From NCBI GenBank assembly GCA_034435875.1, contig DAOTWL010000023.1, positions 1-57,402 on the forward strand: a stretch of DNA of 57,402 nucleotides, in the 5' to 3' direction. Position numbers and translations under genes: made by a program. Under the pieces are notes generated by a model. That model did no database searches. It was not told the DNA's origin and worked only from the letters and a program-made list of their open reading frames with translations. Position 1 is the first letter of the stretch. Each line of letters opens with the position of its first letter. This DNA comes from Anaerolineae bacterium. GTDB lineage: Bacteria > Chloroflexota > Anaerolineae > B4-G1 > DUEL01. This document shows positions 5,997-51,988 of this stretch, piece after piece.

Positions 5997-6001
5997 ACCC
6001 G

Positions 6002-6035
6002 CTGGTAGTCAGCCACGAAGCGAAGCGGAGTGGCG
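6002..6035 (+). repeat. single REP unit (GCCAC..GTGGC stem variant)
   Basis: CTGGTAGTCAGCCACGAAGCGAAGCGGAGTGGCG directly after the leuS stop. Confidence 0.75.
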
Positions 6036-8006: not shown

Positions 8007-8020
8007 CCCTCCTTCTCACT

Positions 8021-8069
8021 CACGTTTCACGTTTCACGTTTCACGTTTCACGTTTCTCTCTTCACGTTT
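8021..8069. repeat. heptanucleotide tandem repeat (CACGTTT)x5 plus 2 degenerate units
   Basis: cacgttt at 8021, 8028, 8035, 8042, 8049 and 8063. Fills the gap between the anti-sigma stop and the toastrack start. Confidence 0.9.
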
Positions 8070-8605
8070 CAGGAAGCCACCGGCTGCCAGCGGCGCAGCA
8101 GGCCCCACCACAGGCCCCCCAGAAGCAGCGCCGTCGTCAGGATGCAGAGGGCCAGCGGCAGGGTCTGGACGACCAGCGCGCCGGCCAGCAGGCCCAGGGA
8201 GTTCAAAAGCAGGCGGGCCGCCCCGAGAAGGTGTTCCAGCAGGACGCCCCCACTGTGGGAGAGGGCCACCAGGAAGCCCGCCCAGCCGGGCAATGTCCAG
8301 AGAATCGGGAGGAACCCGACGAAAAGGACAAGAGCGGTCCCCGCGGCCAGCGCCAGGCCACCGAAAACGGCGCGCCGCCGGGCCCGGCGCCGGTCCATCT
8401 GCGCCATCACCCGCCCGACGAACCCCGGCGGTGGGGAAAGGATCGGCGCATGGCGCAGGACTTCCTCGGCGGCCTGCAATTGCTCCCACCGGACCCGGCA
8501 GCGATCACAGGCCACCAGGTGAGCCTGCAGGGCCTGCCACTCTTCGTCCGGCAGTTCGCCATCCAGTGCTTTCATCATTTTTTCCAGAGCCGTTTCACAC
8601 TCCAT
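8069..8605 (-). CDS. anti-sigma factor (zf-HC2 type, membrane-anchored)
   Basis: Trimmed to ATG 8605. MECETALEKMMKALDGEL..HLVACDRCRVRWEQL, followed by TM helices. Overlaps the sigma gene end by 11 nt. Confidence 0.75.
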   Translation of the reverse strand: MECETALEKMMKALDGELPDEEWQALQAHLVACDRCRVRWEQLQAAEEVLRHAPILSPPPGFVGRVMAQMDRRRARRRAVFGGLALAAGTALVLFVGFLPILWTLPGWAGFLVALSHSGGVLLEHLLGAARLLLNSLGLLAGALVVQTLPLALCILTTALLLGGLWWGLLRRWQPVAS

Positions 8606-9191
8606 TTTCCCTACTCCGTATTCCGTACTCCGTACTCCGCACTCCGCATTCCCTACTCCCGGCTTCCTCCCCCAGCATCTGGGCCAGCGCCAGACGGGCA
8701 CGGTGGAGCCGGGATTTCACCGCGCTGACCGTGCTGCCCAGAATCTGGGCCATCTCTTCGTAGGAGCAATCGTACCAGTACCGCAGAGTAACCGCCGCCC
8801 GGTCCTCGGCGGGGAGGCGCATCAGCAATCGCTGGATTCGCTCCCGGGTCTCCCAGGCGACAACCGCATCGTCGGGGTTGGCGCCGACTCCTCCGAGGAT
8901 GAGTTCGTCATCCAGTACCAGGACGGGCCGACGGCGGCGGATGCGGTCCACGCAGTAGTGGGCCGTGATGGAGAGCAACCAGTTCCGGAAAGGACGGGCG
9001 GGGTCGTACTGGCTCAGGTTGCGGAAGGCCCGCAGAAAGGTCTCCTGAGCCGCGTCCTCCGCCTCCATCCGTTCCCCCAGCATCCGGTAGGCCAGGTTGT
9101 ACACCGGCGTCTGGTAGAGGTGGACCAGATGGGCGAAGGCGTCTGCATCTCCCTTTTGGGCTTGCTGGATCCAGGTTGCTTCGTCTATCAT
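8595..9191 (-). CDS. ECF-type RNA polymerase sigma-70 factor
   Basis: Region 2 (FAHLVHLYQTPVYNLAYRMLG..AEDAAQETFLRAF) and region 4 (SYEEMAQILGSTVSAVKSRLHRAR). Confidence 0.9.
   Translation of the reverse strand: MIDEATWIQQAQKGDADAFAHLVHLYQTPVYNLAYRMLGERMEAEDAAQETFLRAFRNLSQYDPARPFRNWLLSITAHYCVDRIRRRRPVLVLDDELILGGVGANPDDAVVAWETRERIQRLLMRLPAEDRAAVTLRYWYDCSYEEMAQILGSTVSAVKSRLHRARLALAQMLGEEAGSRECGVRSTEYGIRSRENGV
8612..8660. repeat. heptanucleotide tandem repeat (TACTCCG-like) x7
   Basis: tactccg tattccg tactccg tactccg cactccg cattccc tactccc. Lies inside the last ~22 codons of the sigma ORF. Confidence 0.9.
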
Positions 9192-11175: not shown

Positions 11176-13089
11176 CTACGGCGTCGGCGTCGGGGTCGGG
11201 GTGTCGGTCGGCGTCGGAGAAGGGGTCGGCGTGGGCGTCGGCGTGGCGGTGGGAGTGGGCGTCGGCGTGGCGGTAGGAGTGGGCGTCGGTGTCGGCGAGG
11301 GTGTCGGCGTGGGCGTCGGGGTCGGCGTACGGGTAGCGGTGGGAGTGCTGGTTGGTGTTGGTGTGGGCCAATCCCCAATCCGCTGCCACCAGACCTTCAG
11401 CAGGGCCCTTCCGGTCGCCTCGTAATACTCCACCATCAGCCGACGGGCCCCGTTCAACAGCAGGTCCACCGTGTAGACCCTGCTGGCATCGCTGGGGTGC
11501 CATTCATCCAGTACCGGCGTATTGTCCACGAATATCCGCACTCCATCGTCGGCCTGGGCGAAGAGGCGATAGCGGGCCGGTTCAAAGGTCACCTGACGGG
11601 TCCAGCGGGCGGAGAAGTTATCCGCCGGAAGGCCCCAGGCCGGCGAGCCCGTGCCCCAATCAAAATCCAGGGCCCGGTCGTTGCGCACCAGGACGGGATT
11701 CCCGCTCAGGTTGGGGTTGGACCAGTACTCCCCTTTCCAGTCGGGGTAGGACGGGGAGGCGATTTTCTCCCACCATACCTGAATGCGCGCCTCGCCGGTG
11801 TTCTCATAGTACTCCACCCGCAGACTGTGGGTCCCCTGCACCAGGGCGTAGTCCACCGTGATTTCGCGAGCACTCCCATCGTGCCAGGAGTCCAGGATCA
11901 ACCGGTCGTCCACCCATAGGCGCGCGCCGTCGTCCACAATCACGTGGAAGCGGTAGGTGGCTCCTTCAAAGAGGTACGTACGCGTCCAGCGGGCAGAGAA
12001 GCCGTTGGCCGGGACGGCGGGCGCGGGGGAGCCGGCCCCCCAGTTAAAGGAGATATTCTCGTCGTTCCGCACCAGCACCGGGTTGCCGCTCAGGGTCCGG
12101 TTGGGCCAGTACTCCCCTTTCCAGTCCGGGTATGCCGTCAGTTTCTCCCACCAGACCTGGATGATGGCGCCGCCCACGTGTTCGTAGTATTCTACGCGCA
12201 GGGTATGGGAGCCCGCCGCGATTTTGTAATCGGCCGTCACCTCTCGCTGAGCCCCGTCCTGCCAGGCATCCAGAACCAGGGTGGTGTCCACGTAGATGCG
12301 CACCCCGTCGTCTACAATGGCGTGGAAGCGATACAGGCCGGCCTCAAACGCCAGTGTGCGGGTCCAGCGGACGGAGAAGTTATCGGCGGGGAGGCCGGAA
12401 GCCGGCGCGCCGGCGCCCCAGTTGAACCGGATTTCGGCGTCGTTCCGGACCAGCGCCGGAGGGCCGGCCAGTGAGATGTTGGCGAAGTACTCCCCGCGCC
12501 AGGCGGCGGGCGGGGTGGTGGGCCGGGGAGTCGGCCTTGGGGTAGGGGTCGGGGTTGGAGGGGGCGGGGTGGCCGTTGCCGTCGCGGTGGGCGCAGGGGG
12601 AGGCGACGGAGTGGCGGTGTCGGTGGGAACGGGGGTGGGGGTTTCCGTCACGACGATGTGGAGAGAGGCCCTCACTGCCGTTCCGGTCGTGGCGGACCAC
12701 ACGGCAAGAGGGAAGGCTCCTGGCTCCACTCCGGCATCCAGAGGTACTACGAAGGCCGCCGTGAACCGACCGTCCACCCCCACTGCGGCGGAGGCCAGGG
12801 CGGTGCGCCGACCGTCCGGCCCCTCCCGGCCGACGAAGACGGTGTCCCCCGGCTTCCAGCCCTCGCCGTTTACGGTGACCGGGGAGCCAGGGGCGGCGGT
12901 ATCTACGGCCAGCCGGATAGATGGGGTGGCCTGGGGCGGTGGGGGGGTGGGGAAGAGTCCCTGGCGGCTGGTCAGAATGGCTGCGCCGAGGATGCACAGC
13001 GCCAGGAGAATGAGAGAGATGCCCAAAAGTGCGACGATCACCGAGCGGGATTGTGGACTGTTGCCCAACATTTTGTTCACGTCTTTCAT
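11176..13089 (-). CDS. membrane-anchored protein with three tandem PA14 domains and Pro/Thr-rich linkers
   Basis: [33 protein letters not shown]...L..W..EYYE..G...Q.WW occurs three times. N-terminal TM segment and C-terminal (PT)n tail. Confidence 0.8.
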
Positions 13090-13416: not shown

Positions 13417-13452
13417 CGCCACTCCGCTGCGCTCCGTGGCTGACTATGAGCG
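13417..13452 (-). repeat. single REP unit (GCCAC..GTGGC variant, inverted)
   Basis: Reverse complement reads CGCTCATAGTCAGCCACGGAGCGCAGCGGAGTGGCG. Confidence 0.75.
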
Positions 13453-22606: not shown

Positions 22607-22641
22607 GTTCGTAGTGAGGCACGGAGCGCAGCGGAGTGCCG
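22607..22641 (+). repeat. single REP unit
   Basis: GTTCGTAGTGAGGCACGGAGCGCAGCGGAGTGCCG, beginning 4 nt after the korA stop. Confidence 0.8.
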
Positions 22642-22674
22642 TATCCTGCTCCGTGCGACCTGCGACCCTGCGAC

Positions 22675-23937
22675 ATGCACATCGGCATTGACTACACCGC
22701 CGCCATCCAGCAGCGGGCGGGAATCGGGAGATATACCCGAGAACTGGTCGGCGCGCTGCTCCGGCTGACCGTTCGAAGTCGGGCACAAAGCGACAGCGGA
22801 GTGCCGGTTCGTAGCCAGGCACGAAGCGATAGCGGAGTGCCGGTTCGTAGTGAGGCACGAAGCGATAGCGGAGTGCCGTACCCGGAAGAGGACTACCGCT
22901 ATACCCTCTTCGCGGCCGCCGGCCGTCCGTTCGTTCGTAGTCAGGCACGAAGCGATAGCGGAGTGCCGTTCGTCCCATCCGTCCGCCTCCGCTTCCTGCC
23001 CATCAGCGACGAGTGGGCCGCCCGCCTCTGGCATCGGGCCCGCCTGCCCATCCCGGTGGAGGTCTTCACGGGCCCGGTGGACCTCTTCTACTCCCCGGAC
23101 TTCGTCCTTCCCCCCACCCGGCCGCGCACCCGGACCCTGCTCACGGTCCACGACCTCTCCTTCCTGCACTACCCGGACCACTTCGTCCCCAAACTGGTGC
23201 GGTATCTGGAGCGGGTGGTGCCGGCGTCGGTGGCCCGGGCCGACCGGGTGCTGGCGGATTCGGAGGCCACCCGCGCCGACCTGATCCGCCTGCTGGGGAC
23301 GCCGCCGGAGAAGGTGGAGGTGCTCTACAGCGGGGTGGACGCCCGCTTCCGCCCGGAGCCGGAACCCGGAGAACGGGAACGGTTGCGGGCCCGCTACGGC
23401 CTGGACCGGCCCTACGTCCTCTCCGTGGGCACGCTCCAGCCGCGCAAGAACTACGTCCGGCTCATCCGCGCCTTTGCCCGCCTCCCGGATACCGGACGGG
23501 TGCTGGTCATCGCCGGCGGCCGGGGCTGGCTCTACGCGTCGGTCCTGGAGGAGGCGGCCCGTCATCCCGACCGGGTGCGGGTCCTGGGGTTTGTGGAGGA
23601 TGAGGACCTGCCCGCCCTCTACCGGGAGGCGGACCTCTTCGTTTTCCCGTCGTTCTACGAGGGGTTCGGGTTGCCGGTTCTGGAGGCGATGGCCTGCGGG
23701 GTGCCAGTGGTCTGCTCGGGGGTTTCCAGTTTGCCGGAGGTGGCGGGGGACGCGGCGCTCCTGGTGGACCCGGAGGACGAAGAAGGGCTGAGTCGGGCCA
23801 TGCAGCGGGCGCTGGAGGATGAGGAACTGCGGGGGGAGATGACGGTGCGAGGGCTGGCGCGCGCCGCTCTGTTCACCTGGGAGCGGGCCGCGCGGCAGTT
23901 GCTGAGGGTCATAGGGGAACGGGCCGGGCGCTTCTGA
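22675..23937 (+). CDS. GT-B fold glycosyltransferase (family 1/4) carrying in-frame REP insertions
   Basis: MHIGIDYTAAIQQRAGIGRYTREL N-terminus. C-terminal domain FPSFYEGFGLPVLEAMACGVPVV (E-x7-E region). Confidence 0.85.
   Translation: MHIGIDYTAAIQQRAGIGRYTRELVGALLRLTVRSRAQSDSGVPVRSQARSDSGVPVRSEARSDSGVPYPEEDYRYTLFAAAGRPFVRSQARSDSGVPFVPSVRLRFLPISDEWAARLWHRARLPIPVEVFTGPVDLFYSPDFVLPPTRPRTRTLLTVHDLSFLHYPDHFVPKLVRYLERVVPASVARADRVLADSEATRADLIRLLGTPPEKVEVLYSGVDARFRPEPEPGERERLRARYGLDRPYVLSVGTLQPRKNYVRLIRAFARLPDTGRVLVIAGGRGWLYASVLEEAARHPDRVRVLGFVEDEDLPALYREADLFVFPSFYEGFGLPVLEAMACGVPVVCSGVSSLPEVAGDAALLVDPEDEEGLSRAMQRALEDEELRGEMTVRGLARAALFTWERAARQLLRVIGERAGRF
22771..22878 (+). repeat. three abutting 36-nt REP units inside the GT4 ORF
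   Basis: Units at 22771, 22807 and 22843 (GTTCG[AT]AG..GGCAC..GTGCCG), translated as VRSRAQSDSGVP/VRSQARSDSGVP/VRSEARSDSGVP. Confidence 0.9.
22933..22968 (+). repeat. fourth 36-nt REP unit inside the GT4 ORF
   Basis: GTTCGTAGTCAGGCACGAAGCGATAGCGGAGTGCCG, translated as VRSQARSDSGVP. Confidence 0.9.
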
Positions 23938-25026: not shown

Positions 25027-26622
25027 TCACCTCGCCGCCTCCGCCTGTGGGCCGACACGGCCCGACCGCCCCCACACCCGGAGCGTATACCCCCACGGGA
25101 TGAGATACGTCGTCGCCACGGCCATCAGGGTGATGCCCAGGGCGTTCCCCCAGTTGGCCAGATGGGGAATCCAGAACCAGACGAAGCCGTAGACCACGTA
25201 GGAGAAGACCACCGTCAGGCTGAAGAGGCCGGCCTGGAGCGGGGCCTCCGGGCGGGGGAAGAGGGCCGCCAGCGCCACCGCCCAGGTGACGTACCAGGGC
25301 TGGAACCACGGGGTGGCGAAGAGCAGGAGGAAGAGCATCAGATCAAAGGCGTGGCGGAGGACGGCCCCAGGACGCGCCCAGGTCCGGGCCAGTTGGAGGA
25401 TGAAGGCGACGGCGAAGGCGCCCAGCGCGGCCGACTGGGCCATCCTCCCGGCGGCCATTTCGTTCAGCCCGACCAGTCGCAGGGTGAGAGAGAGAACGGC
25501 GGGGAGGGAGTGGGTGAGGAGGCCGGAGCGGGTGGAAAGGTTGGTCAGCGCGTCCAGCGGTCGCGGCAGAGAGAGGTACGCCAGCGCCACCAGCGCGAGG
25601 CTGAGCATTACGGTTGCCAGTAAGCGACGCAGCGAAGCGGAGTCGCGCTGGACCGTTCGTAGTAAGCGACGCAGCGAAGCGGAGTCGCGTTGGACGGCAC
25701 TCCGCTGCGCTTCGTGCCTGACTACGAACGTTGGTGGTAAGCGACGGGGAGAAGCGGAGTCGCGTTGACAGCACTCCCCCGCGCTTCGGGCCCAGGCCGG
25801 CAGGAACAGCGGCAGGAGGGGCACCATCGGGATTTTGACCAGAAAGGAGAGGGTGAGGGCCGCCGTCATCCCCAACGGGCGGCGCCGTTCCCAGAAATAG
25901 ATGCCCAGGAGAGCGAAGGCCATCATCGCCGCGTCGTTGTGGCCGTTGGCGGCGAATTCGTAGAGGACCAGCGGGTTCCAGGCGAAGAAGGCCAGTCCCG
26001 CCGGGGCCAGGTCGGGCTGGCGGCGGCGCAGGACGGCGTAAATCAGCAACGTCTGGGCCAGGTAGGCCGCAATAGCGACGCCCTTAAATCCCAGGAGGTT
26101 CAGCGCCAGGCTCTCCCGCCCCAACACGCCCACCACCAGGGCGCTGATCCAGGTCCATAGGGGGCCGTAGTTGGAAGGAGCCATAAGGTAGGCAGAGTAG
26201 CGGGCGAAGGCCGTATCCGGCAGATGCCCCGGCGGGACCACCAGCGGGTTCTCCCGGTAATAGAACAGTTCCTCCCCATGGGTGACGTAGTCCACCACAT
26301 CCCCCGCGCCGACGGGATAGGTGAGGCTCACCAGCAGTGCCAGCGTCAGGCCGCAGAGGAGAATCAGGGCCGGGGAGACCTGCCGGGGATGGCGGCGGCA
26401 GGTCCGGTAGACCAGAGCGTAGAGGCCGAAGAGGAGCAGGAAGGTCACCAGGAAAGCCAGGGCCGGTAAAGGCTCCCGCCGGGCAATCTCCGGGAAACTG
26501 ATGGGGGTGCGCGCGACGTGGGCGAACAGGGAATAGGGCAGGACCAGCCCGAAGAGGTAAAGGAGGAAAGAGGCCGCGAAGGCGGCGAATATCACCGCTG
26601 GCGGACGGAGACCGGATTTCAT
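25027..26622 (-). CDS. polytopic GT-C-like glycosyltransferase (DUF2029-like) carrying in-frame REP insertions
   Basis: More than 12 hydrophobic segments. YPVGAGDVVDY, NGHNDAAMMAF, and PWFQPWYVTW near the C-terminus. ATGA overlap with the polyprenyl synthase gene. Confidence 0.6.
   Translation of the reverse strand: MKSGLRPPAVIFAAFAASFLLYLFGLVLPYSLFAHVARTPISFPEIARREPLPALAFLVTFLLLFGLYALVYRTCRRHPRQVSPALILLCGLTLALLVSLTYPVGAGDVVDYVTHGEELFYYRENPLVVPPGHLPDTAFARYSAYLMAPSNYGPLWTWISALVVGVLGRESLALNLLGFKGVAIAAYLAQTLLIYAVLRRRQPDLAPAGLAFFAWNPLVLYEFAANGHNDAAMMAFALLGIYFWERRRPLGMTAALTLSFLVKIPMVPLLPLFLPAWARSAGECCQRDSASPRRLPPTFVVRHEAQRSAVQRDSASLRRLLRTVQRDSASLRRLLATVMLSLALVALAYLSLPRPLDALTNLSTRSGLLTHSLPAVLSLTLRLVGLNEMAAGRMAQSAALGAFAVAFILQLARTWARPGAVLRHAFDLMLFLLLFATPWFQPWYVTWAVALAALFPRPEAPLQAGLFSLTVVFSYVVYGFVWFWIPHLANWGNALGITLMAVATTYLIPWGYTLRVWGRSGRVGPQAEAAR
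25618..25790. repeat. 4-5 REP units (mixed orientation) inside the GT-C-like ORF
   Basis: AGTAAGCGACGCAGCGAAGCGGAGTCGCG twice, then CGGCACTCCGCTGCGCTTCGTGCCTGACTACGAACG, GGTAAGCGACGGGGAGAAGCGGAGTCGCG and a partial unit. Translated as QRDSASLRRLL.. / FVVRHEAQRSAV. Confidence 0.85.
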
Positions 26623-27644
26623 CGCTCCCGGAAAGCCAGTTGCCGGACCAGGTCAGCCAGGGCATCGGCGGCGGGACCGCTCAGGCCGGCCTCCCGCAGG
26701 GTCTGGAGCGCGCGGTCGGCCTCCTCCAGCACCCGGGCCTGAGCGGCCTCCCGCGCTCCGGAGCGGTTCAGGAGGAGCATCGCGGCCTGTAGATGGTCCG
26801 AAGAGCAGGCCACATCAGGGAGAAGATGCCGGAGATGGGGCTCGCGGCCCAGGGCGTAGAGGACGGGGAACGTCTTCTTGCCGCGCCGGAGGTCGGAGCC
26901 TACCGGCTTTCCGGTGACGGCGGGGTCACCCCAGATGCCCAGGATGTCGTCCTGAATCTGGAAGGCGATCCCGGCGTGGTAGCCAAAGGCCCGCAGGCGC
27001 CCGAGCACATCGGCGGGGGCGCCCGCGATCAGGGCTCCCAGTTCGCAGGCCGCCGAGAGCAACTCCGCCGTCTTGCGGGCGACCATGAACAGGTAGTCCT
27101 CAACAGAGACGCCGTCCTCCTCCTCAAAGCGCAGGTCCAGAAACTGCCCCTCGGTGAGGCGCAGGCAGGCCGTCAGGAGAATTTGGAGGGCGGAAAGGAC
27201 GGTTGCCGGGGGCACGGCCCGGTCTATCAGCCGGAAGAGGGCCAGCTGGGCCAGGGTGAAGAGAGTATCCCCAGCGTTCAGCGCCTGGGGCACTCCCCAG
27301 ACCGACCAGACGGTGGGCCGGCCGCGCCGGGTACTGTCGCCGTCCTCAATATCGTCGTGGATGAGGGAGAAGTTGTGGATCAGTTCCACGGCGGCGGCAG
27401 CGGGCAGGGCCTGCTCCCATTCCCCGCCGCAGGCTTCGCAGCAGAGGAGGCAGAGGACGGGGCGGATGCGCTTGCCGGTGGGCTGAGGGCCGAGGATGGG
27501 CCGGAATTCCCGGTCCTGCCAACCCAGGTGGTAGCGGAGCATGCCGTACAGGTCGCCGAGGCGGTGTTCCGGGGCCGCCACGACGGCCTGCATCTCCGCC
27601 TCCAGCGCGGGGAGGTAGCGGCGTAGGTGTTCCTGAAACGTCAT
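26619..27644 (-). CDS. polyprenyl diphosphate synthase (trans-isoprenyl type)
   Basis: First DDxxD region LIHDDIEDGDSTRRGRPT. Second region FQIQDDILG. Confidence 0.88.
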   Translation of the reverse strand: MTFQEHLRRYLPALEAEMQAVVAAPEHRLGDLYGMLRYHLGWQDREFRPILGPQPTGKRIRPVLCLLCCEACGGEWEQALPAAAAVELIHNFSLIHDDIEDGDSTRRGRPTVWSVWGVPQALNAGDTLFTLAQLALFRLIDRAVPPATVLSALQILLTACLRLTEGQFLDLRFEEEDGVSVEDYLFMVARKTAELLSAACELGALIAGAPADVLGRLRAFGYHAGIAFQIQDDILGIWGDPAVTGKPVGSDLRRGKKTFPVLYALGREPHLRHLLPDVACSSDHLQAAMLLLNRSGAREAAQARVLEEADRALQTLREAGLSGPAADALADLVRQLAFRER

Positions 27645-27663: not shown

Positions 27664-28965
27664 CTAATAACTCAAAGAAGCAGGACGCAGGAAAGATGGG
27701 CATCCTGCTTCCTGCATCCCGCATCCACTCCCGAGGATGCGCCAGATTTCCCGCAGGGTCGGGCGTTTGCCGTAGATGAGCAACCCCATCCGGAAGAGTT
27801 TGGCCCCGAACCAGAGCGCGGCCGGAATGGAGAGGAGCAGGGCACCGATGCTCCCGGCGACATCCACCCAGGGCACCTCCCCCAGTGGGACGCGCAGCAT
27901 CATCATCGTCGGCGCGGTAAGGGGGAAGAAACTGAGGGCCCGGGCCAGCGGCGCGTTCGGGTTGATCATCACGAAACTGGCCAGCATATAGGGGATGACG
28001 GCGATGAAGGAGAAAATGCCCGCCAGTTGCTGGCTCTCCCGCATCGTCGTCCCCAGCGCGCCCACACCCGCCATCAGGACAGCGTAGAGCAGATAACCCA
28101 GGAGATAGTAGACCACACCCAGGACGAAGACCCGCGCGGGGATGCCAATACGGCCCACCATGGCCAGGAGGCTCGCCATGCCGCCGGTGAAGCCCCAGGC
28201 GCTCGCCAGCCAGATGAGCACCTGGGTCAGCCCCACCGCGCCCAGACCCAGCACTTTCCCGGCCATCAGTTCGGTGGGGCGGACCGAGGAGATGATAATT
28301 TCCATGATACGGTTCTCCTTCTCCTCGGCGACGCTCTGGAGGAGGTAGCCGGAGGAGGAGAAAATGGTCATAATCAGGAAGACGGCCAGGAGGTAGGGGA
28401 CCAGGAAATTAAAAAACGTCCCCCCGCCTCGCTCCTGGCCCGTGCCGGAGATGATGCGGGATTGGAGCCTCTCCAGCGGGTCGGCAGCGCGGCGCCCGAA
28501 GGCCGGGTCCACCCGGCCCGCCAGCAGGTGGGTGATCAGAAAGTTTCGCACCCGCTCCGAATCCGCCAGCGCGGCCTCGCCGAAACTCTCTCGCGTCAAC
28601 GCGGTGACCTCTCCCGTCTCCAGGTAATCCTCGCTGATGACCCGCACAGCCTGGAGTTCGTCAGTGCGCAGCGCGGCTTCCGCCGCTTCCTGGCTCTCGT
28701 AGAGGATAAAGGACTCCTGGTACTCCGGCAGGATGGGGGTAAAGTACCCGGAGCGGTCCACGACGCCGATGGGCTTGCGGCCCACGTCAAACTGCCGCTC
28801 CAGCCAGTCCGCCCCAGCGTCGCCCCGGGGCAGCAGGAGCGCGGTGAGCACCAGGCCGATCACTCCCAGCGCCGGGACGATGGCCGTCATAATGATGAAT
28901 CCGGTCCGGCGGACGTTGGTCAGGTACTCATGCCGGGCGATGGTCCAGATTTTGCGCCAGTTCAT
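27664..28965 (-). CDS. ABC-2 type transporter permease (NatB-like)
   Basis: MNWRKIWTIARHEYLTNVRRTGF, then a large extracytoplasmic loop and 5 C-terminal TM helices. AGGAGGA lies before the ATG. Confidence 0.8.
   Translation of the reverse strand: MNWRKIWTIARHEYLTNVRRTGFIIMTAIVPALGVIGLVLTALLLPRGDAGADWLERQFDVGRKPIGVVDRSGYFTPILPEYQESFILYESQEAAEAALRTDELQAVRVISEDYLETGEVTALTRESFGEAALADSERVRNFLITHLLAGRVDPAFGRRAADPLERLQSRIISGTGQERGGGTFFNFLVPYLLAVFLIMTIFSSSGYLLQSVAEEKENRIMEIIISSVRPTELMAGKVLGLGAVGLTQVLIWLASAWGFTGGMASLLAMVGRIGIPARVFVLGVVYYLLGYLLYAVLMAGVGALGTTMRESQQLAGIFSFIAVIPYMLASFVMINPNAPLARALSFFPLTAPTMMMLRVPLGEVPWVDVAGSIGALLLSIPAALWFGAKLFRMGLLIYGKRPTLREIWRILGSGCGMQEAGCPSFLRPASLSY
27679..27730. repeat. 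short GCAGGA/TCCTGC heptamer hairpin (mini version of 51848-51988)
   Basis: AGCAGGACGCAGGA-aagatgggca-TCCTGCTTCCTGC, followed by atcccgcatcc. Overlaps the last codons of the permease ORF. Confidence 0.7.
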
Positions 28966-29608: not shown

Positions 29609-30355
29609 CTACGGCGTCGGCGTCAGCGGGACGATGGTCACGGGCACCGTGGGCGGAGGCGGAGCGGGCGTCGGGGTCGGAGTCGCGATGGCCGGAACAA
29701 AGACGACGGCCCGAAAGCCGAAACTTTTGATAAAACCCTCCAGAAAAGAGCGAGCGTTCCGGTCCGCCGTCTCCAGGATGCCGTCGGCCAGGGCGGCCCG
29801 GAGGATTTCCTGCTCCGCTGCCTGCCGCGCGGCCGTCTCCAGGTCCGGCTTCAGCCCGAAAACCCCTGTCTCCCGGTCGTAAACGAAGGTCTTCTCGTTG
29901 TCCAGCCGGACGACGAAGACTTCCGCCGGAGGTAGAGTCAGCACCACCTGGTCATCGGCTGTCACCTTCACGTCTCCCTCCTGGACTTTCTCCAGGTCCA
30001 CGCCGGCGATGACCTGCCCATGGGCGACCAGAAGAAGTTTATCGCCGAAGAGGAAGGCCAGCGCTCCCTGCCCGGATTCGGCGGTGATGACCTTCTCAAC
30101 GGTGTAGACGACGGTTTCCAGCCGGCGGAGGCTCCGCACCTCCCGTACGATGGTCGCCGGACTGGGACGGATGGTGGGGGTGGGGTGGAGAAGTTCCCCC
30201 ACTTCCCGTTCCAGCGTCTCCCGGGCTTCTCCCAGCGGGTTCAGGCGCGCCCGAATATCCGGCGCCAGCCAGATGACCAGCGCGATCAGGGCGATCAGGA
30301 GCAGAACAATCACGGCAGTTGCACATCCGGAGCGAGAAGTCATGGTGTCCTCCAT
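29609..30355 (-). CDS. DUF4230-like membrane-anchored protein
   Basis: N-terminal TM segment. LETVVYTVEKVI..LLLVAHGQVIAGVDLEKV pattern. PT-rich C-terminus. Confidence 0.65.
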   Translation of the reverse strand: MEDTMTSRSGCATAVIVLLLIALIALVIWLAPDIRARLNPLGEARETLEREVGELLHPTPTIRPSPATIVREVRSLRRLETVVYTVEKVITAESGQGALAFLFGDKLLLVAHGQVIAGVDLEKVQEGDVKVTADDQVVLTLPPAEVFVVRLDNEKTFVYDRETGVFGLKPDLETAARQAAEQEILRAALADGILETADRNARSFLEGFIKSFGFRAVVFVPAIATPTPTPAPPPPTVPVTIVPLTPTP

Positions 30356-33491: not shown

Positions 33492-34649
33492 ATGAGAATC
33501 GGAGTTCTGACTGGAGGGGGCGACGTCCCTGGACTGAATCCCTGCATCAAGGCACTGGTCTATCGGGCCGTGGATGAAGGCCACGAGGTGGTCGGCATCC
33601 GCCGGGGATGGGCCGGACTCCTCTACTACAACCCCGACGACCCATCTCCCCAGCCGGAGAACGCGATCCCCCTGGATAAGGCCATTGTCCGGACCATTGA
33701 CCGGACCGGCGGCACGTTTCTCCACACGTCCCGCACCAATCCCAGCCGGGTGGCGCCGGATAAGGCCCCGGCGTTCCTGAATCCGGAGCAGTTCCCGGTG
33801 GATAAAAACGGGACCGTGGACTTCACCTCCCACGTCCTGCGGGTACTGGAACACCTCAAGATAGACGTCCTGGTGCCCATCGGCGGTGAGGACACCCTGG
33901 GGTATGCGGCCCGAATCCATCGTGAGGGCTTTCCTATCGTTAGCATCCCCAAGACGATGGATAACGACGTCTTCGGTACCGACTACTGCATCGGCTTCTC
34001 CACCGCCGTTACCCGCAGTGTCCGCTTTATCCACCAACTCCGCTCCACCGCCGGCTCCCATGAACGCATCTGCGTGGTGGAACTCTTCGGCCGTCACTCC
34101 GGCGAGACCTCTCTGATCGCCGCCTATCTGGCCGGAGCCGACCGGGCTATCATCTCGGAAGTCCCCTTTGACATTGAGAAACTGGCCCGTCTGCTGATCA
34201 AGGACAAGTACGAGAACCCCAGCCGCTATGCCATCCTGACTATCTCCGAAGGGGCGCGCGAGATCGGGAAAGACGTCATCCAGTCCGGCGTCCCCGATCC
34301 CTACGGCCACAAGAAACTGGGCGGCATCGGTGCCGTGACCGCCAAGCGGCTGGAGCAGATGACCGGCGAGGGGACAATGTGCCAGGAACTGGCCTACCTG
34401 ATGCGCTCCGGCGAGCCCGACGCGCTGGACATTATGGTCGCCGTCAACTTCGCCAATACCGCGATGGACCTGATCCAGGAGAAGAAGTTCGGCCGGATGG
34501 TGGCCCTGCGGGAAGGACGGTACACCGATGTAGGTGCCGAATCGCCGACGCTGGGAGTCAAGCATGTGGATGTCCGGGCGCTGTACGATGTGGACGAGTA
34601 TCGCCCCAAAGTGATGCACGTTCACGGGAAGCCGATGTTTTTGTACTGA
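33492..34649 (+). CDS. pfp: 6-phosphofructokinase, PPi-dependent-type signature
   Basis: [19 protein letters not shown] (Asp at the E. coli PfkA-104 equivalent) and PKTMDND (Lys at the 124 equivalent). Confidence 0.8.
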
Positions 34650-34686
34650 AGCGTGAAACGTGAAGCATGAAGCGTGACGTGAAACG
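34647..34686. repeat. heptanucleotide tandem repeat (GTGAAAC/GTGAAGC) x6
   Basis: tgaagcg tgaaacg tgaagca tgaagcg tgacg tgaaacg, between the two pfk genes. Reverse complement of the 8021-8069 unit. Confidence 0.85.
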
Positions 34687-35743: not shown

Positions 35744-36989
35744 ATCCGCCGCTGCTCAGGGCCACCGTCAGGTCAGCGCCGCAGGCTACCCGCAGGACGG
35801 GCACCCGCAGCGCGCGCAGCGCCGCCGCCAGTTCCTCCGTCCCGGGCGGGCCGCCGAAGGTGGCCGCGTCCAGCAGGACCACCACCGGCCGCAGCCCCCG
35901 GCGGACCAGTTGGTCTGCGGCCACCGCGACCTCCCGTCGGGTGGAGGGGGTAATCAGGACAACCGTGCTCCCGCGCGGGAGGTGGCGGGCCTGGACGCCC
36001 AGGAGTGCCGAAAAGGAGAGGTCGCCGTCGGCCCGAACCAGGGCCAGCGCCTCCAGCATCTTCCGCAGTTGCCGCCCGCCCCGGTCCGGCGGAAGGACCG
36101 TGAGCCCGGCCCCCTGGCAGACCAGCCCCACCGCCCGTCCCCGCCGCAGGAAGTACCGCCCCACCGAGGCGGCAATCGTCACCGCGTATTCTTCTGTGGA
36201 AGGCGGCAGGGTGACGGGGCCGAAGGGCCGCCAGAGGAGTTCGTCCGCCGGAGCGGCCGGGATGGAGGGAAGGGCGTGGTGGACGGCGCGCTCGGCGTCC
36301 ACGAACATCCAGACCTCCGCCAGGGGGTCCAGTTCAAACTCTTTGACGATGAGCCGGTCCCGGCGGGCCGTGCTGGGCCAGTGGATGCGGTTCAGGGGGT
36401 CGCCGGGGGCGTACTCCCGCACGCCGGCGGCGTTGGGGGTGATCTGGTGGGTCCGGCGGCGCAGCGCCTCCCCGCCGGGCAGGAGCCCCGGCGGCGAGGG
36501 GAACGACCGTACCTCCACCGTCATCGGGTAGACGACCAGGGTGGCCGTGGGGGGGAACTCTCGCCGGACCGGGAAGAGGCCGAAGGGGTCGCCGGAGCGG
36601 ATTTCGGTGGGGCCCAGGGGGAAGACGCCCCGCTGAGTTAAACGGAGACGCGCCCAATAGGGGTAAGCACTTTGCCCGCGAAGCATTGTTAATACCCGCG
36701 AGCTCCTTGTAACAGCAAGGGGCGACCGATCACGCACTTCCACCCACCATCGCGTCATACGGCCGGTGTTTTTAACTTCAAATCGCTCCTCAAGAATCTG
36801 CCCAACTTGAGCCCGGAAAATACGCGTCCGGCGACACACTTCTATTCCGCGCAATGCTGTCGCCGACCAGATGCGGCTGACCAGCAGGACCAGCGCCCAG
36901 AGATAGGTCAGATGGGCGTAGAGGGGGTTGCCGGTGAGGCCCAGGGCGAGGGCGCTGGCGGCGAAGAGTCCCAGGATGAGCCAGAGCAT
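35742..36989 (-). CDS. DUF58 domain protein (MoxR-associated, vWA-like)
   Basis: Two N-terminal TM helices. REYAPGDPLNRIHWPSTARRDRLIVKEFE motif. Confidence 0.8.
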   Translation of the reverse strand: MLWLILGLFAASALALGLTGNPLYAHLTYLWALVLLVSRIWSATALRGIEVCRRTRIFRAQVGQILEERFEVKNTGRMTRWWVEVRDRSPLAVTRSSRVLTMLRGQSAYPYWARLRLTQRGVFPLGPTEIRSGDPFGLFPVRREFPPTATLVVYPMTVEVRSFPSPPGLLPGGEALRRRTHQITPNAAGVREYAPGDPLNRIHWPSTARRDRLIVKEFELDPLAEVWMFVDAERAVHHALPSIPAAPADELLWRPFGPVTLPPSTEEYAVTIAASVGRYFLRRGRAVGLVCQGAGLTVLPPDRGGRQLRKMLEALALVRADGDLSFSALLGVQARHLPRGSTVVLITPSTRREVAVAADQLVRRGLRPVVVLLDAATFGGPPGTEELAAALRALRVPVLRVACGADLTVALSSGG

Positions 36990-36990
36990 A

Positions 36991-37046
36991 GCCGGAAGCC
37001 GATAGCCGTTAGCCGGTAGCCGATAGTCGGGAGTCGGTTGTCGGGA
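36991..37046. repeat. heptanucleotide tandem repeat (GCCGATA-like) x8
   Basis: gccggaa gccgata gccgtta gccggta gccgata gtcggga gtcggtt gtcggga. Spans the moxR-DUF58 junction and the last ~12 codons of moxR. Confidence 0.9.
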
Positions 37047-37986
37047 GGACGTCGCCGCCGGGGACGGGAACCTGGCGGAGGATTTCTTCCACCATCTCCT
37101 CGGCGGTCACGTCCCGCATCCGGGCCGTGGGGCCGATAATGACCCGGTGGCCCAGGGCCGGGAGGGCCAGCGCCTTCACGTCGTCCGGGAGGACGAAGTC
37201 CCGCCCGTGGATAGCCGCGCGGGCCTGCCCGGCCCGGTAGAGGGTGAGGCTCCCGCGCGGGCTGGCCCCCAGGTAGATGTCGGGGTATTCTCGGGTACGG
37301 CGGGTCAGTTCCACGATGTACCGCTTCACCGCCGGCGCCACATAGACGGCCCGGATGGCCTCCTGGGCCTGCAGCAACTCCTCCACCGAGGCCACCGTCT
37401 CCAGTTCCTCTATCGGATGACGGTACTGCTGGCGCTCCAGGATGCGCACTTCGTCCTCCACCGCCGGGTAGCCCAGGCGGATACGCAGGAAGAAGCGGTC
37501 CAGTTGCGCCTCCGGCAGGGGGAAGGTGCCCTCGTACTCAATGGGGTTCTGGGTTGCCAGCACCATGAAGGGGCGGGGGAGGGGCCGGGTGACGCCGTCC
37601 ACGGTGACCTGGCGCTCCTCCATGGCCTCCAGGAGCGCCGCCTGGGTCTTGGGCGTGGCCCGGTTGATCTCGTCGGCCAGGACGATCTGGGCCATGATGG
37701 GGCCGGGGCGGAACTCAAACTGACGGGTGGCCTGGTTATAGATGGAGACGCCGGTGACGTCGCTGGGGAGCATGTCGGGGGTGAACTGAATGCGGCTGAA
37801 GGAGCAACCCAGCGAGCGGGCGATACTCCGGGCCAGCATAGTCTTGCCGGTGCCGGGGACGTCCTCAATGAGCAGGTGGCCCTGGCAGAGGAGGCCGATG
37901 ACCACCAGTTCCACCACCTCCCGCTTGCCGACGATCACCCGCTCCACGTTGGCGATGAGCCGTTCGGCGAAGGATTGGACGGACAT
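37009..37986 (-). CDS. MoxR-family AAA+ ATPase
   Basis: [12 protein letters not shown] Walker [10 protein letters not shown] Walker [23 protein letters not shown]. Confidence 0.92.
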
Positions 37987-50391: not shown

Positions 50392-51848
50392 CCCCCTTCC
50401 TTCGTCGCTGGGGGTGGCTTCTGGGGTTGCTGTTGGCGCTTCTGGCCTGCGCGCTGATTCCCGTCCCCGGCTACGTCATCATTGCGCCGGGAGGGAACAC
50501 CCCCCTCATCCCTGTCGCGCTGGGCCCGCAGATGCGGCTGGACCCGCCCTTCGCCCGCCCCGGCGACGAAGTCCGCCTCCACGTCACCGACCGTACCCCC
50601 TGGACCCACGTCCTTCTGGCCGTGAACGGCGTCGCCCTCCACCCGGAGTCCTGGGAATCCGGCCCGGGCGGACAGTGGACCTGGACGTTCCACCTGGCCC
50701 TCCCCACCGGCCCGTCGGAAATCGTCTTCTACCACAGTTGCGACACCGGCTGTCGGGAGCGGGGACGGATGATGCTGGGCGAGCCGCCGTCTCCCTCCTC
50801 CGCCCCGCTGCCCACCAAACTGGGGCTGGTCTTCCCCCACCCGGACCGGGACTGGCACGGGCGCAGCGGCTGGGCGGTGGAGGTCACCTACGTCCGGCGG
50901 GCCCAGGAGCCCGGCTGGGGGGTAGACGACCTGGCCGCGAAGGTGTACCGGCATCGGGCGAAGGGGTTGCGGGTGCTGGTGCGGGTGGACTACGACTACA
51001 ACCAGTCCATCCCGCCGACCGGCGACTATCTGGCCCTGGCGGAGTATCTGGACTACCTGGCGCGCCTGGCCCGGGACGACCGTCTCCGGGAAGTCTACGG
51101 CTACGTCCTGGGGAGCAGTTACAACGGCCTGGACCAGAACGCGCTGGCCCCCGACCGTCCGGTGACCCCGGAGTGGTATGCCCGGGTCTTCAACGGCTAC
51201 GGCGAACCCGTCCACCACACCGACAACGCCGTCCAGGTGATGCGGGCCGAAAATCCCCACGTCCGGGTGCTGGTGGGACCGGTCCGGCCCTGGAACACCG
51301 ACCAGGACGGCCTCCACAAGTACCGCGTGGATGCGCCCTGGCTCAACTACATGAACACCCTGGTGCGCGAGGTGGACGAATCGGCCCGGGCGAAGGCCGC
51401 CGCTGGGATCCCCCTGGCCGCCCCGGACGGCTTTGCCGTCCAGGCTCCAGGCCGCCCGGATGCCCCTGAACTGGGCGGGTCCGGCTCCGCAGAGCCTCAG
51501 ACCGACCTCCGGCGGCCGGAATGGAAGGGCGCCCAGGCCGGCTTCCGCGTCTATCGGGAGTGGCTGGACATCATCAACGCCTACCCGTCCACGCGGGGGC
51601 TCCCCGTCTACATCACCTCGGCCAACACCTTCATTCCGGCGGTGGGCGTCCCTCCGGCCCAGAATTATCCCCGGGGCTGGCTCCGTTCGGCCTTGGCGGT
51701 GGTGAACGGCGAGCCTCAGATTCAGGCCCTCTGCTGGTTTCTGGACGACCTGCCCGGGGACACCCAGTGGGAGAACTTCAGCCTGACCCGCCGTCGGGGC
51801 CGCCTGGTGGACGCGGCGGAGGAGTTTGAGGAACTGCTGAAAAGATAG
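50349..51848 (+). CDS. membrane-anchored hypothetical protein, possibly with a glycoside-hydrolase-like TIM-barrel domain
   Basis: TM segment WGWLLGLLLALLACALI, an Ig-like segment, then alternating beta/alpha pattern (GLRVLVRVDYDYNQ, YVLGSSYNG, RVLVGPVRPWN, PVYITSANTF). An in-frame GTG at 50388 gives a GTGA overlap with the kinase stop. Confidence 0.5.
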   Translation: MRTIRPADHAFQIVTPFLRRWGWLLGLLLALLACALIPVPGYVIIAPGGNTPLIPVALGPQMRLDPPFARPGDEVRLHVTDRTPWTHVLLAVNGVALHPESWESGPGGQWTWTFHLALPTGPSEIVFYHSCDTGCRERGRMMLGEPPSPSSAPLPTKLGLVFPHPDRDWHGRSGWAVEVTYVRRAQEPGWGVDDLAAKVYRHRAKGLRVLVRVDYDYNQSIPPTGDYLALAEYLDYLARLARDDRLREVYGYVLGSSYNGLDQNALAPDRPVTPEWYARVFNGYGEPVHHTDNAVQVMRAENPHVRVLVGPVRPWNTDQDGLHKYRVDAPWLNYMNTLVREVDESARAKAAAGIPLAAPDGFAVQAPGRPDAPELGGSGSAEPQTDLRRPEWKGAQAGFRVYREWLDIINAYPSTRGLPVYITSANTFIPAVGVPPAQNYPRGWLRSALAVVNGEPQIQALCWFLDDLPGDTQWENFSLTRRRGRLVDAAEEFEELLKR

Positions 51849-51988
51849 CAGGAAGCAGGAAGTAGGGAGCAGGAAGTAGGAAGTAGGAAGGAAAGATGCA
51901 AGACCTTTTTCCCATCCTGCGTCCTGCATCCTCCGTCCTGCATCCTGCGTCCTGCATCCTGCGTCCTGCATCCATCCCGCATCTTGCG
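51848..51988. repeat. two opposed heptamer-repeat blocks forming a long imperfect hairpin
   Basis: (GCAGGAA/GTAGGAA)x6 at 51848-51889 and (CATCCTG/CGTCCTG)x8-10 at 51912-51988. Each arm unit pairs with its opposite unit at 6 of 7 positions. Confidence 0.9.

Follow-up and report, generated by a model that had tools for sequence, protein, structure and literature searches.

Background

The GTAG-tagged repetitive extragenic palindromic (REP) sequences of Escherichia coli and Pseudomonas, including their bacterial interspersed mosaic elements (BIMEs) and hairpin-forming REP doublets (REPINs), are mobilised by REP-associated tyrosine transposases (RAYTs). Rickettsia palindromic elements (RPEs), the classic in-frame palindromic elements, are said to have been found by Ogata and colleagues in 2000 in frame in protein genes; insertions of RPE-1 are longer, about 100-150 bp, and lie in AT-rich reduced genomes. 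Here we analyse a 57,402-nt stretch of contig DAOTWL010000023.1 of a hot-spring Anaerolineae bacterium (the window), in which an array of REP units lies in frame in the gene of a membrane protein with a glycosyltransferase C (GT-C) fold. The likely explanation, in our judgement, is that REPINs entered a permissive loop of this protein, and that the array then grew and shrank under selection that kept the reading frame.

A catalogue of GTAG and CGTC REPs in prokaryotes, including Chloroflexi, describes REPs wholly inside open reading frames (ORFs) of known proteins, as singles, dimers and clusters (Di Nocera et al. 2013, BMC Genomics 14:522; PMC3733652). In that study, intragenic dimers encode 20-30 aa and clusters 43-82 aa (Thauera, R. 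conorii), many of the hosts are DNA replication or repair genes, and it is argued that inactivating insertions are purged and the survivors tolerated. The present case shares with it the location wholly within ORFs, a DNA-metabolism host (here gyrA) and the conclusion of tolerated survivors. It differs in REP family and phylum, and in presenting an orthologue series, with gain, loss and decay in whole codons, in a loop of a transmembrane enzyme. The GT-C case is a further example of a known phenomenon in a new lineage and host protein, and its added value is the resolved orthologue series. With it, the range of intragenic REPs comes to include transmembrane glycosyltransferases and a Thermoflexales-like lineage of the Chloroflexota.

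In comparison with the REPs of E. coli and Pseudomonas, the family likewise has a ~35-nt unit in which GTAG precedes a GC-rich hairpin, many copies, head-to-head and tail-to-tail dimers, clusters, and a mostly extragenic location; like the Y and Z REPs of BIMEs, two or three stem types alternate within arrays. It differs in the 5-bp stem and the 13-14-nt loop (G[A/G]AGCGNAGCGGA, or GCAGCGAAGCGGA in the GCGAC-stem type), in having at least 13% of clusters in frame, in its Chloroflexota (Thermoflexales-like) host, and in that no RAYT was found in the window and 1.35 Mb of related loci. As with RPEs, a selfish palindromic repeat lies in frame in a gene for a functional protein, is absent from orthologues and would be translated; unlike RPEs, the units here are short and build arrays by local multiplication, in a thermophile of high G+C content.

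The REP array in the GT-C gene

Each unit of the family is 35-36 nt long and consists of a GTAG head, a G+C-rich 5-bp stem and a conserved 13-nt loop, of which a 14-nt variant exists (consensus GTTCGTAGTCA-GGCAC-GAAGCGCAGCGGA-GTGCC-G). Five such units of ~35 nt, in the order + + - + - on the plus strand of the window, occupy positions 25613-25803 and are in frame in the ORF 25027-26622 on the minus strand:

25027..26622, minus strand: host gene, GT-C fold, GT87/PimE-like, PF26314 family, polytopic membrane protein of 531 aa (from homologues, alignment, AlphaFold2 (AF2) model, Foldseek and dN/dS)
25613-25647, plus strand: unit U1, stem GCGAC/GTCGC, head degraded to GCCAGT, tandem copy of U2 at 42 nt
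25655-25689, plus strand: unit U2, stem GCGAC/GTCGC, GTTCGTAGTAAGCGAC...GTCGCG
25695-25729, minus strand: unit U3, stem GGCAC/GTGCC, perfect match to the consensus GTTCGTAGTCAGGCACGAAGCGCAGCGGAGTGCCG
~25730-25764 (core 25741-25763), plus strand: unit U4, stem GCGAC/GTCGC, head GTTGGTGG, 2 core mismatches
core 25770-25792, minus strand: unit U5, degenerate, 4 core mismatches

Two stem types are present in the array, GCGAC/GTCGC (U1, U2, U4) and GGCAC/GTGCC (U3). U2 and U3 form an inverted pair, i.e., a REPIN, with 37-nt arms that are 81% complementary. Within the array, U5/U4 are an old, degenerate pair, U3/U2 a fresh one and U1 a duplicated unit; U5 is probably the oldest unit and the partner of U4. 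The REP-derived residues are about 277-338 of the 531-aa protein, a net gain of about 43-48 codons over REP-free orthologues. A preliminary description of this DNA had attributed about 55 codons in the middle of the protein to 4-5 REP units of mixed orientation and stem type, with normal hydrophobic segments on both sides. Both points hold, given that five units were mapped, the peptide it quoted is part of the 531-aa ORF, and hydrophobic helices pick up again at either side of the insert.

Orthologue series

The anchors LLPLFLLA and LAYLSLP, which flank the loop, were located independently in all three frames of every genome locus. REP-free relatives have 66-81 nt (22-27 codons) between the anchors, and two further relatives, also without REP sequence, have 102 nt. 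In the eight species-level genomes with REP-derived sequence, the inter-anchor lengths are 96, 96, 114, 162, 165, 195, 201 and 210 nt; all eight are multiples of 3, and the anchors share the same frame in each. The nearest relatives (76-92% identical) have 29-82 codons between the anchors, with REP units varying in number and decay, and among database orthologues this segment, of 29 to about 82 aa, takes at least 12 different lengths. Overall, orthologues hold from 0 to more than 6 REP units at the same loop, always in frame.

An inverted REP pair, translated ARSEARSAAECRQRDSASLRRLLP, is shared at the same offset by several species. One locus (L001) has two copies of this pair and another (L003) has one, partly decayed; L006 and L002 have one REP unit only, degenerate in L002, and L004 has REP remnants plus other sequence. 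The comparison yields short loops in REP-free relatives, REP-filled loops in close relatives and whole-codon lengths throughout, which strongly supports the earlier suggestion of a tolerated or variable loop. The locus hence offers a natural series of a selfish repeat turning into protein sequence, with at least 12 length states at one site, units of different ages and whole-codon steps.

Another explanation would be an assembly artefact, with REP reads wrongly joined to the gene. In public data, the contigs of related populations are interrupted precisely at the array, stopping at 25570-25613 and restarting at ~25783; the contigs aligned to the gene are those of relatives, the best sequencing-run word share with the window genome being 0.18. 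In hot-spring metagenomes, REP words reach a depth of hundreds to thousands, against 4-9x for the flanking gene. Two contigs of one Thermoflexales metagenome-assembled genome (MAG) also end in the array: L014 ends within at least three in-frame 78-nt REP-pair repeats, and L019 restarts in the last unit. However, at least 8 genomes that were assembled independently of one another have REP units at this same codon position, as do at least 19 database proteins of differing origin, and the decayed units bear species-specific substitutions. We therefore regard an artefact as very improbable.

According to the reading we prefer, a GTAG-headed REP family populates a Thermoflexales-like lineage of Chloroflexota, often in the form of BIME-like arrays and REPINs. 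An inverted REP pair would have inserted into a short Arg-rich inter-helix loop in the ancestor of the clade whose GT-C proteins are at least ~76% identical. Units would afterwards have been gained by local duplication, lost by deletion and decayed by point mutation, with selection on the enzyme purging variants that are not whole-codon. The survivors would be translated as a disordered or helix-extending Arg/Ser/Ala-rich loop, while the enzyme stays functional. Of this history, the data show the REP units, the orthologue series, the conservation of frame, the purifying selection and the GT-C fold; translation of the insert, its cytoplasmic location, the mechanism of mobilisation and duplication, and the neutrality of the insert are what we infer.

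Why the reading frame stays open

Four to five of the six frames of a REP unit are free of stops. One stop is the TAG in the GTAG head, and the other, a TGA, is read from the reverse strand in the GTAGTCAGG variant and is absent from the GTAGTAAGC variant. By an estimate from base composition, ~73% of random frames of 12 codons have no stop at 65% G+C, so the openness of the unit needs no special explanation. We rejected the idea that the REP had been selected for openness in every frame, because this G+C content predicts ~4.4 of six frames open and the GTAG head gives a stop in one.

The same scarcity of stops could keep a pseudogene or split gene open, and an ATG (M339) does follow the array in the window. 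Nevertheless, the anchors are in the same frame in all eight REP-derived loci despite differing insert lengths, the invariant motifs are kept, and the post-array ATG is absent from orthologues. Pairwise dN/dS among the eight REP-bearing species is 0.13-0.20 in the N-terminal half and 0.11-0.22 in the C-terminal half, with dS of 0.26-0.79. With dN/dS of 0.11-0.22 to either side of the array, the gene is not a pseudogene, an alternative that is largely refuted and has next to no probability left. As judged from these ratios, the gene has been subject to purifying selection on either side of the array for as long as the array has existed, and the GT-C ORF is intact and functional.

The spacing of units suggests where the constraint lies. 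Head-to-tail spacing is a multiple of 3 in 6/6 pairs within in-frame clusters (39 or 42 nt) versus 17/55 pairs elsewhere (mode 43 nt), where "elsewhere" means the clusters that the codon-usage classifier described below left out of the in-frame set. This pattern indicates that intragenic arrays are a filtered subset of what the REP family produces, and that length, rather than stops, is the real constraint on intragenic REPs.

Host protein and position of the insert

In Chloroflexota MAGs (Thermoflexales, Anaerolineae), 163 homologues of the host protein were found, all with PF26314 and some with GT87 (PF09594) as well. Many residues are invariant in the alignment (A1), including GAGDVVDY, NGHND and PWFQPWY; G105, A106, G107, D108, V110, D111, Y112 and E117 are among them. 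The AF2 model of the window protein has a predicted local distance difference test score (pLDDT) of 84 and a predicted template modelling score (pTM) of 0.87. Within the insert, pLDDT falls below 50 at residues 298-312 only, with a confident GT-C fold around it. Foldseek matched the model at probability 1.00 to PIGU, PimE, ALG6, AglB and ArnT, with TM-scores of 0.34-0.59, and to GPI mannosyltransferase I. The GT-C-like identity that had been read from the sequence is thus borne out by GT-C structures and by the GT87 and PF26314 domains of orthologues.

A search of PDB sequences with the family profile gave no match, an exact copy of the window protein was not found in public assemblies, and Pfam found no domain in the window protein as encoded. 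After removal of the insert, Pfam GT87 scored 24.4 bits against a cut-off of 25, and a REP-free orthologue (P0022) scored 27.8 bits. The restored near-threshold match indicates that the REP insert masks the GT87 domain. The protein shares with GT87/PimE-type GT-C enzymes the multi-helix GT-C fold and the acidic motif GAGDVVDY in a large outer loop, but differs from them in that it has no PDB sequence match, its GT87 domain is interrupted by REPs, and its gene is paired with a trans-type polyprenyl synthase. Given that the array breaks MAG contigs inside the gene and hides GT87 from Pfam, mis-annotation of such genes as hypothetical or fragmentary is easy.

For topology, the helices were taken from the model and the usual GT-C arrangement was assumed, in which the N-terminus is on the inner side and the large outer loop contains the acidic motif. 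Under this arrangement, inner loops contain 19 Lys and Arg in 66 residues and outer loops 10 in 156, and the REP loop is an inner one. In REP-free relatives the loop is a short Arg-rich turn (AARRRxxG…). The REP-encoded segment contains 13 Lys and Arg and 5 Asp and Glu, a composition fitting for the inner side, and its ends lengthen the flanking helices in the AF2 model. The prediction places the insert in an inner-side loop that is probably cytoplasmic, on the opposite face from the acidic motif and presumed active site, and not surface-exposed. The view of the loop as a surface feature of a surface-glycan enzyme does not agree with the positive-inside counts, which give the cytoplasmic side instead.

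In-frame REPs in other genes

A second glycosyltransferase gene, ~1.1 kb from the GT-C gene, contains four in-frame REP units:

22675..23937, plus strand: GT4 glycosyltransferase gene with in-frame REPs (Glycos_transf_1, E = 7.5e-40)
22771-22878, plus strand: site A, three exact head-to-tail 36-nt REP units with 14-nt loop (Tandem Repeats Finder: period 36, 3.0 copies)
22933-22968, plus strand: site B, single 36-nt REP unit, in frame

All copies in the GT4 gene have the 14-nt loop GAAGCGATAGCGGA, which yields an exact 36-nt unit, and all are read in the frame VRSQARS…; the copies in the GT-C gene have a 13-nt loop, 35-nt units and variable spacers. Compared with the three units at A and one at B in the window, the GT4 orthologue in L003 has a REP at neither site, and that in L006 has none at A and two at B; these two syntenic loci thus behave like the GT-C series. 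There are, as previously described, two REP-bearing but open glycosyltransferase genes within 3 kb, with the REPs in frame in both.

The generality of such insertions was evaluated with a codon log-odds classifier, trained on the window's own long ORFs of high GC3, with coding required on both sides of a cluster. In the window and the related metagenome contigs listed, long ORFs contain at least 17 of the 127 classifiable clusters in frame, while 110 were not called in frame within an ORF. The resulting share, 13%, is a minimum, as the classifier missed the GT4 sites, whose flanks are short or contain other REPs. Two of the in-frame clusters belong to further orthologues of the GT-C gene. The other hosts are:

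PMT_2-type GT-C protein, in three contigs
1590-aa DUF2298/Chlor_Arch_YYY membrane protein
two unnamed polytopic membrane proteins, in which transmembrane segments lie on either side of the array
heparinase II/III-like protein
radical-SAM/SPASM enzyme
FMN-reductase/SCP2 flavoprotein
gyrA, where three units in tandem separate the N-terminal domain from the C-terminal beta-propeller (TARSEARSEAEGRPARSEARGEAEGRPARSEARSEAECRP; L101:1540-1640, metagenome contig Ga0071330_1054677)
one small unknown protein

Frame-openness alone would leave ~60% of surviving clusters intragenic, a rough estimate that assumes ~88% coding density. In comparison, the intragenic clusters observed are a minority, which implies that most in-frame insertions are still selected against and that no insertion preference for genes is needed. 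The insertion-site preference hinted at in the preliminary description is hence not established. As for its other hint, an enrichment in envelope genes, about 5-6 of the 11 host families listed are polytopic membrane or glycan-related proteins, yet gyrA, the radical-SAM/SPASM enzyme and the flavoprotein are also hosts; a preference for envelope genes is suggestive only, and statistically soft. If the excess of polytopic hosts is true in complete genomes, it would inform which protein architectures tolerate repeat-derived insertions.

These hosts bear on a further alternative, that the insert is domesticated or functional, whether as a strong mRNA structure within the ORF that adjusts how well the glycosyltransferase message is translated or how stable it is, as a variable regulatory or interaction loop in the cytoplasm, or as a contingency locus whose unit number shifts within populations. 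On the mRNA strand, positions 25600-25800 (minus strand) fold at -95.4 kcal/mol (z = -4.2) with a long REPIN hairpin. The site is occupied throughout a clade in which dS reaches 0.3-0.8, unit number differs among almost all species, two glycosyltransferase genes within ~3 kb have been hit, and several other hosts are GT-C-like or polytopic. Nevertheless, units are decaying in place (L002, L004, L006), which is what an insert free of selection would show; neither peptide sequence nor frame nor orientation is conserved, and REP-free relatives keep the same motifs. Considering also that unrelated hosts such as gyrA and the radical-SAM enzyme carry in-frame units, we find a functional insert quite unlikely. 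A broader and speculative proposal is that REP arrays repeatedly fixed in coding loops beside helices of GT-C and polytopic envelope proteins, growing and shrinking there by whole codons, are a lineage-specific generator of disordered Arg-rich loops, or in-ORF mRNA structures that tune expression, instead of tolerated junk; we grant this a small chance of being right.

Several observations weigh against the entry of REPINs into a permissive loop followed by growth and shrinkage of the array in frame. The excess of polytopic and glycan-related hosts could mean that the insert is not purely neutral. Metatranscriptome contigs span both halves of a related gene and not the array, and short-read assemblies may collapse the repeat number, the unit counts in MAGs included. 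The 5-bp stem and conserved 13-nt loop are atypical of classical REPs. With respect to RAYT, tblastn with E. coli RayT against the window and the 1.35 Mb of related loci gave a best E-value of 1.6, i.e., none was found, and neither an HUH/Tyr motif screen nor a screen for REP-flanked ORFs in the window and related loci found one; the sole REP-flanked small ORF is not a Y1 transposase. Because no RAYT was found in these sequences, the mechanism of mobilisation is unproven.

The REP family in the window and related contigs

By its stem-loop, head, copy number and inverted pairs, the repeat is a GTAG-type REP/BIME/REPIN family. Across its 57 kb, the window (G+C of 64.6%) has 16 REP units, spread over 7 sites. 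There are 11 occurrences of the head octamer TTCGTAGT versus 0.37 expected, with 0/100 shuffles reaching 11, and 19 of the loop motif versus 6.6 expected. An Rfam scan of the whole window matched no family. A CRISPR-like array was considered and rejected, as there are no spacers between the abutting units, which are dispersed and lie in both orientations. Besides the sites in the two glycosyltransferase genes, the window has the following:

28-186, both strands: BIME-like array of 4 units, GGCAC-type (+) alternating with GCGAC-type (-), strict 81-nt period
6001-6035, plus strand: single REP, stem GCCAC/GTGGC, between convergent ORFs
13417-13451, minus strand: single REP, stem GCCAC/GTGGC, intergenic
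22607-22641, plus strand: intergenic REP unit, between the stop of the upstream gene (22603) and the GT4 start

The array at 28-186 is cut by the edge of the window, and the ORF downstream of it is aminotransferase-like, with an N-terminus (MGIQPTPYIWHNGKLVPWEEARVHV...) read as that of a branched-chain aminotransferase.

The family was sampled from at least 120 metagenome contigs, retrieved by a degenerate REP pattern and with units found by the loop anchor only. Among the 302 units listed from these contigs, 228 have perfect Watson-Crick stems. Nearly all stems are of three types (GCCAC/GTGGC, GGCAC/GTGCC and GCGAC/GTCGC) and mixed combinations are rare, which indicates clear covariation of the stem. 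TCGT is present at the position of the TCGTAG head in 195 of these units, and 43 have the 14-nt loop. Neighbouring units among the matches listed are arranged tail-to-tail in 99 pairs, head-to-head in 29 and head-to-tail in 61.

Polyprenyl synthase and other neighbouring features

The GT-C gene lies directly downstream of a prenyl synthase gene:

26619..27644, minus strand: trans-type polyprenyl diphosphate synthase (PF00348, E = 1e-67; nearest NCBIfam models IdsB/GGPP (geranylgeranyl diphosphate) synthase-like)

The synthase stop overlaps the GT-C start codon (ATGA, 26619-26622), and the two genes are translationally coupled. Among L001-L023, 20 related loci have the synthase directly 5' of the GT-C gene, at identities as low as 47%, and this pairing suggests that a trans-prenyl synthase and a GT87-like enzyme are functionally linked. 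On account of the operon linkage, the GT-C protein is a putative polyprenyl-phosphate-sugar-dependent enzyme. With respect to the polyprenyl-linked glycan neighbourhood proposed earlier, the pairing of the GT-C and synthase genes is conserved, but the synthase is a trans-type short-chain enzyme and not a cis-type undecaprenyl diphosphate synthase.

Short tandem heptanucleotide arrays are present at 8020-8071, 8599-8659, 22654-22678, 27700-27726, 34647-34686, 36988-37047, 51847-51890 and 51913-51973, examples being TCACGTT x7.4, TCCGTAC x7.4, CATCCTG x8.7 and AGCAGGA x6.3. These resemble the short tandemly repeated repetitive (STRR) heptamer repeats of cyanobacteria. A TGCGACC x3.4 array lies just 5' of the GT4 start codon, and a similar array is found in the same place in L003. 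At 11179-11343, a 12-nt/30-nt tandem repeat (CGGCGTCGGCGT x12.5) lies at the 3' end of a 637-aa ORF (11176-13089, minus strand) and probably encodes a Thr/Pro-rich tail. The ORF at 29609-30355 (minus strand) has a similar TPTP-rich C-terminus.

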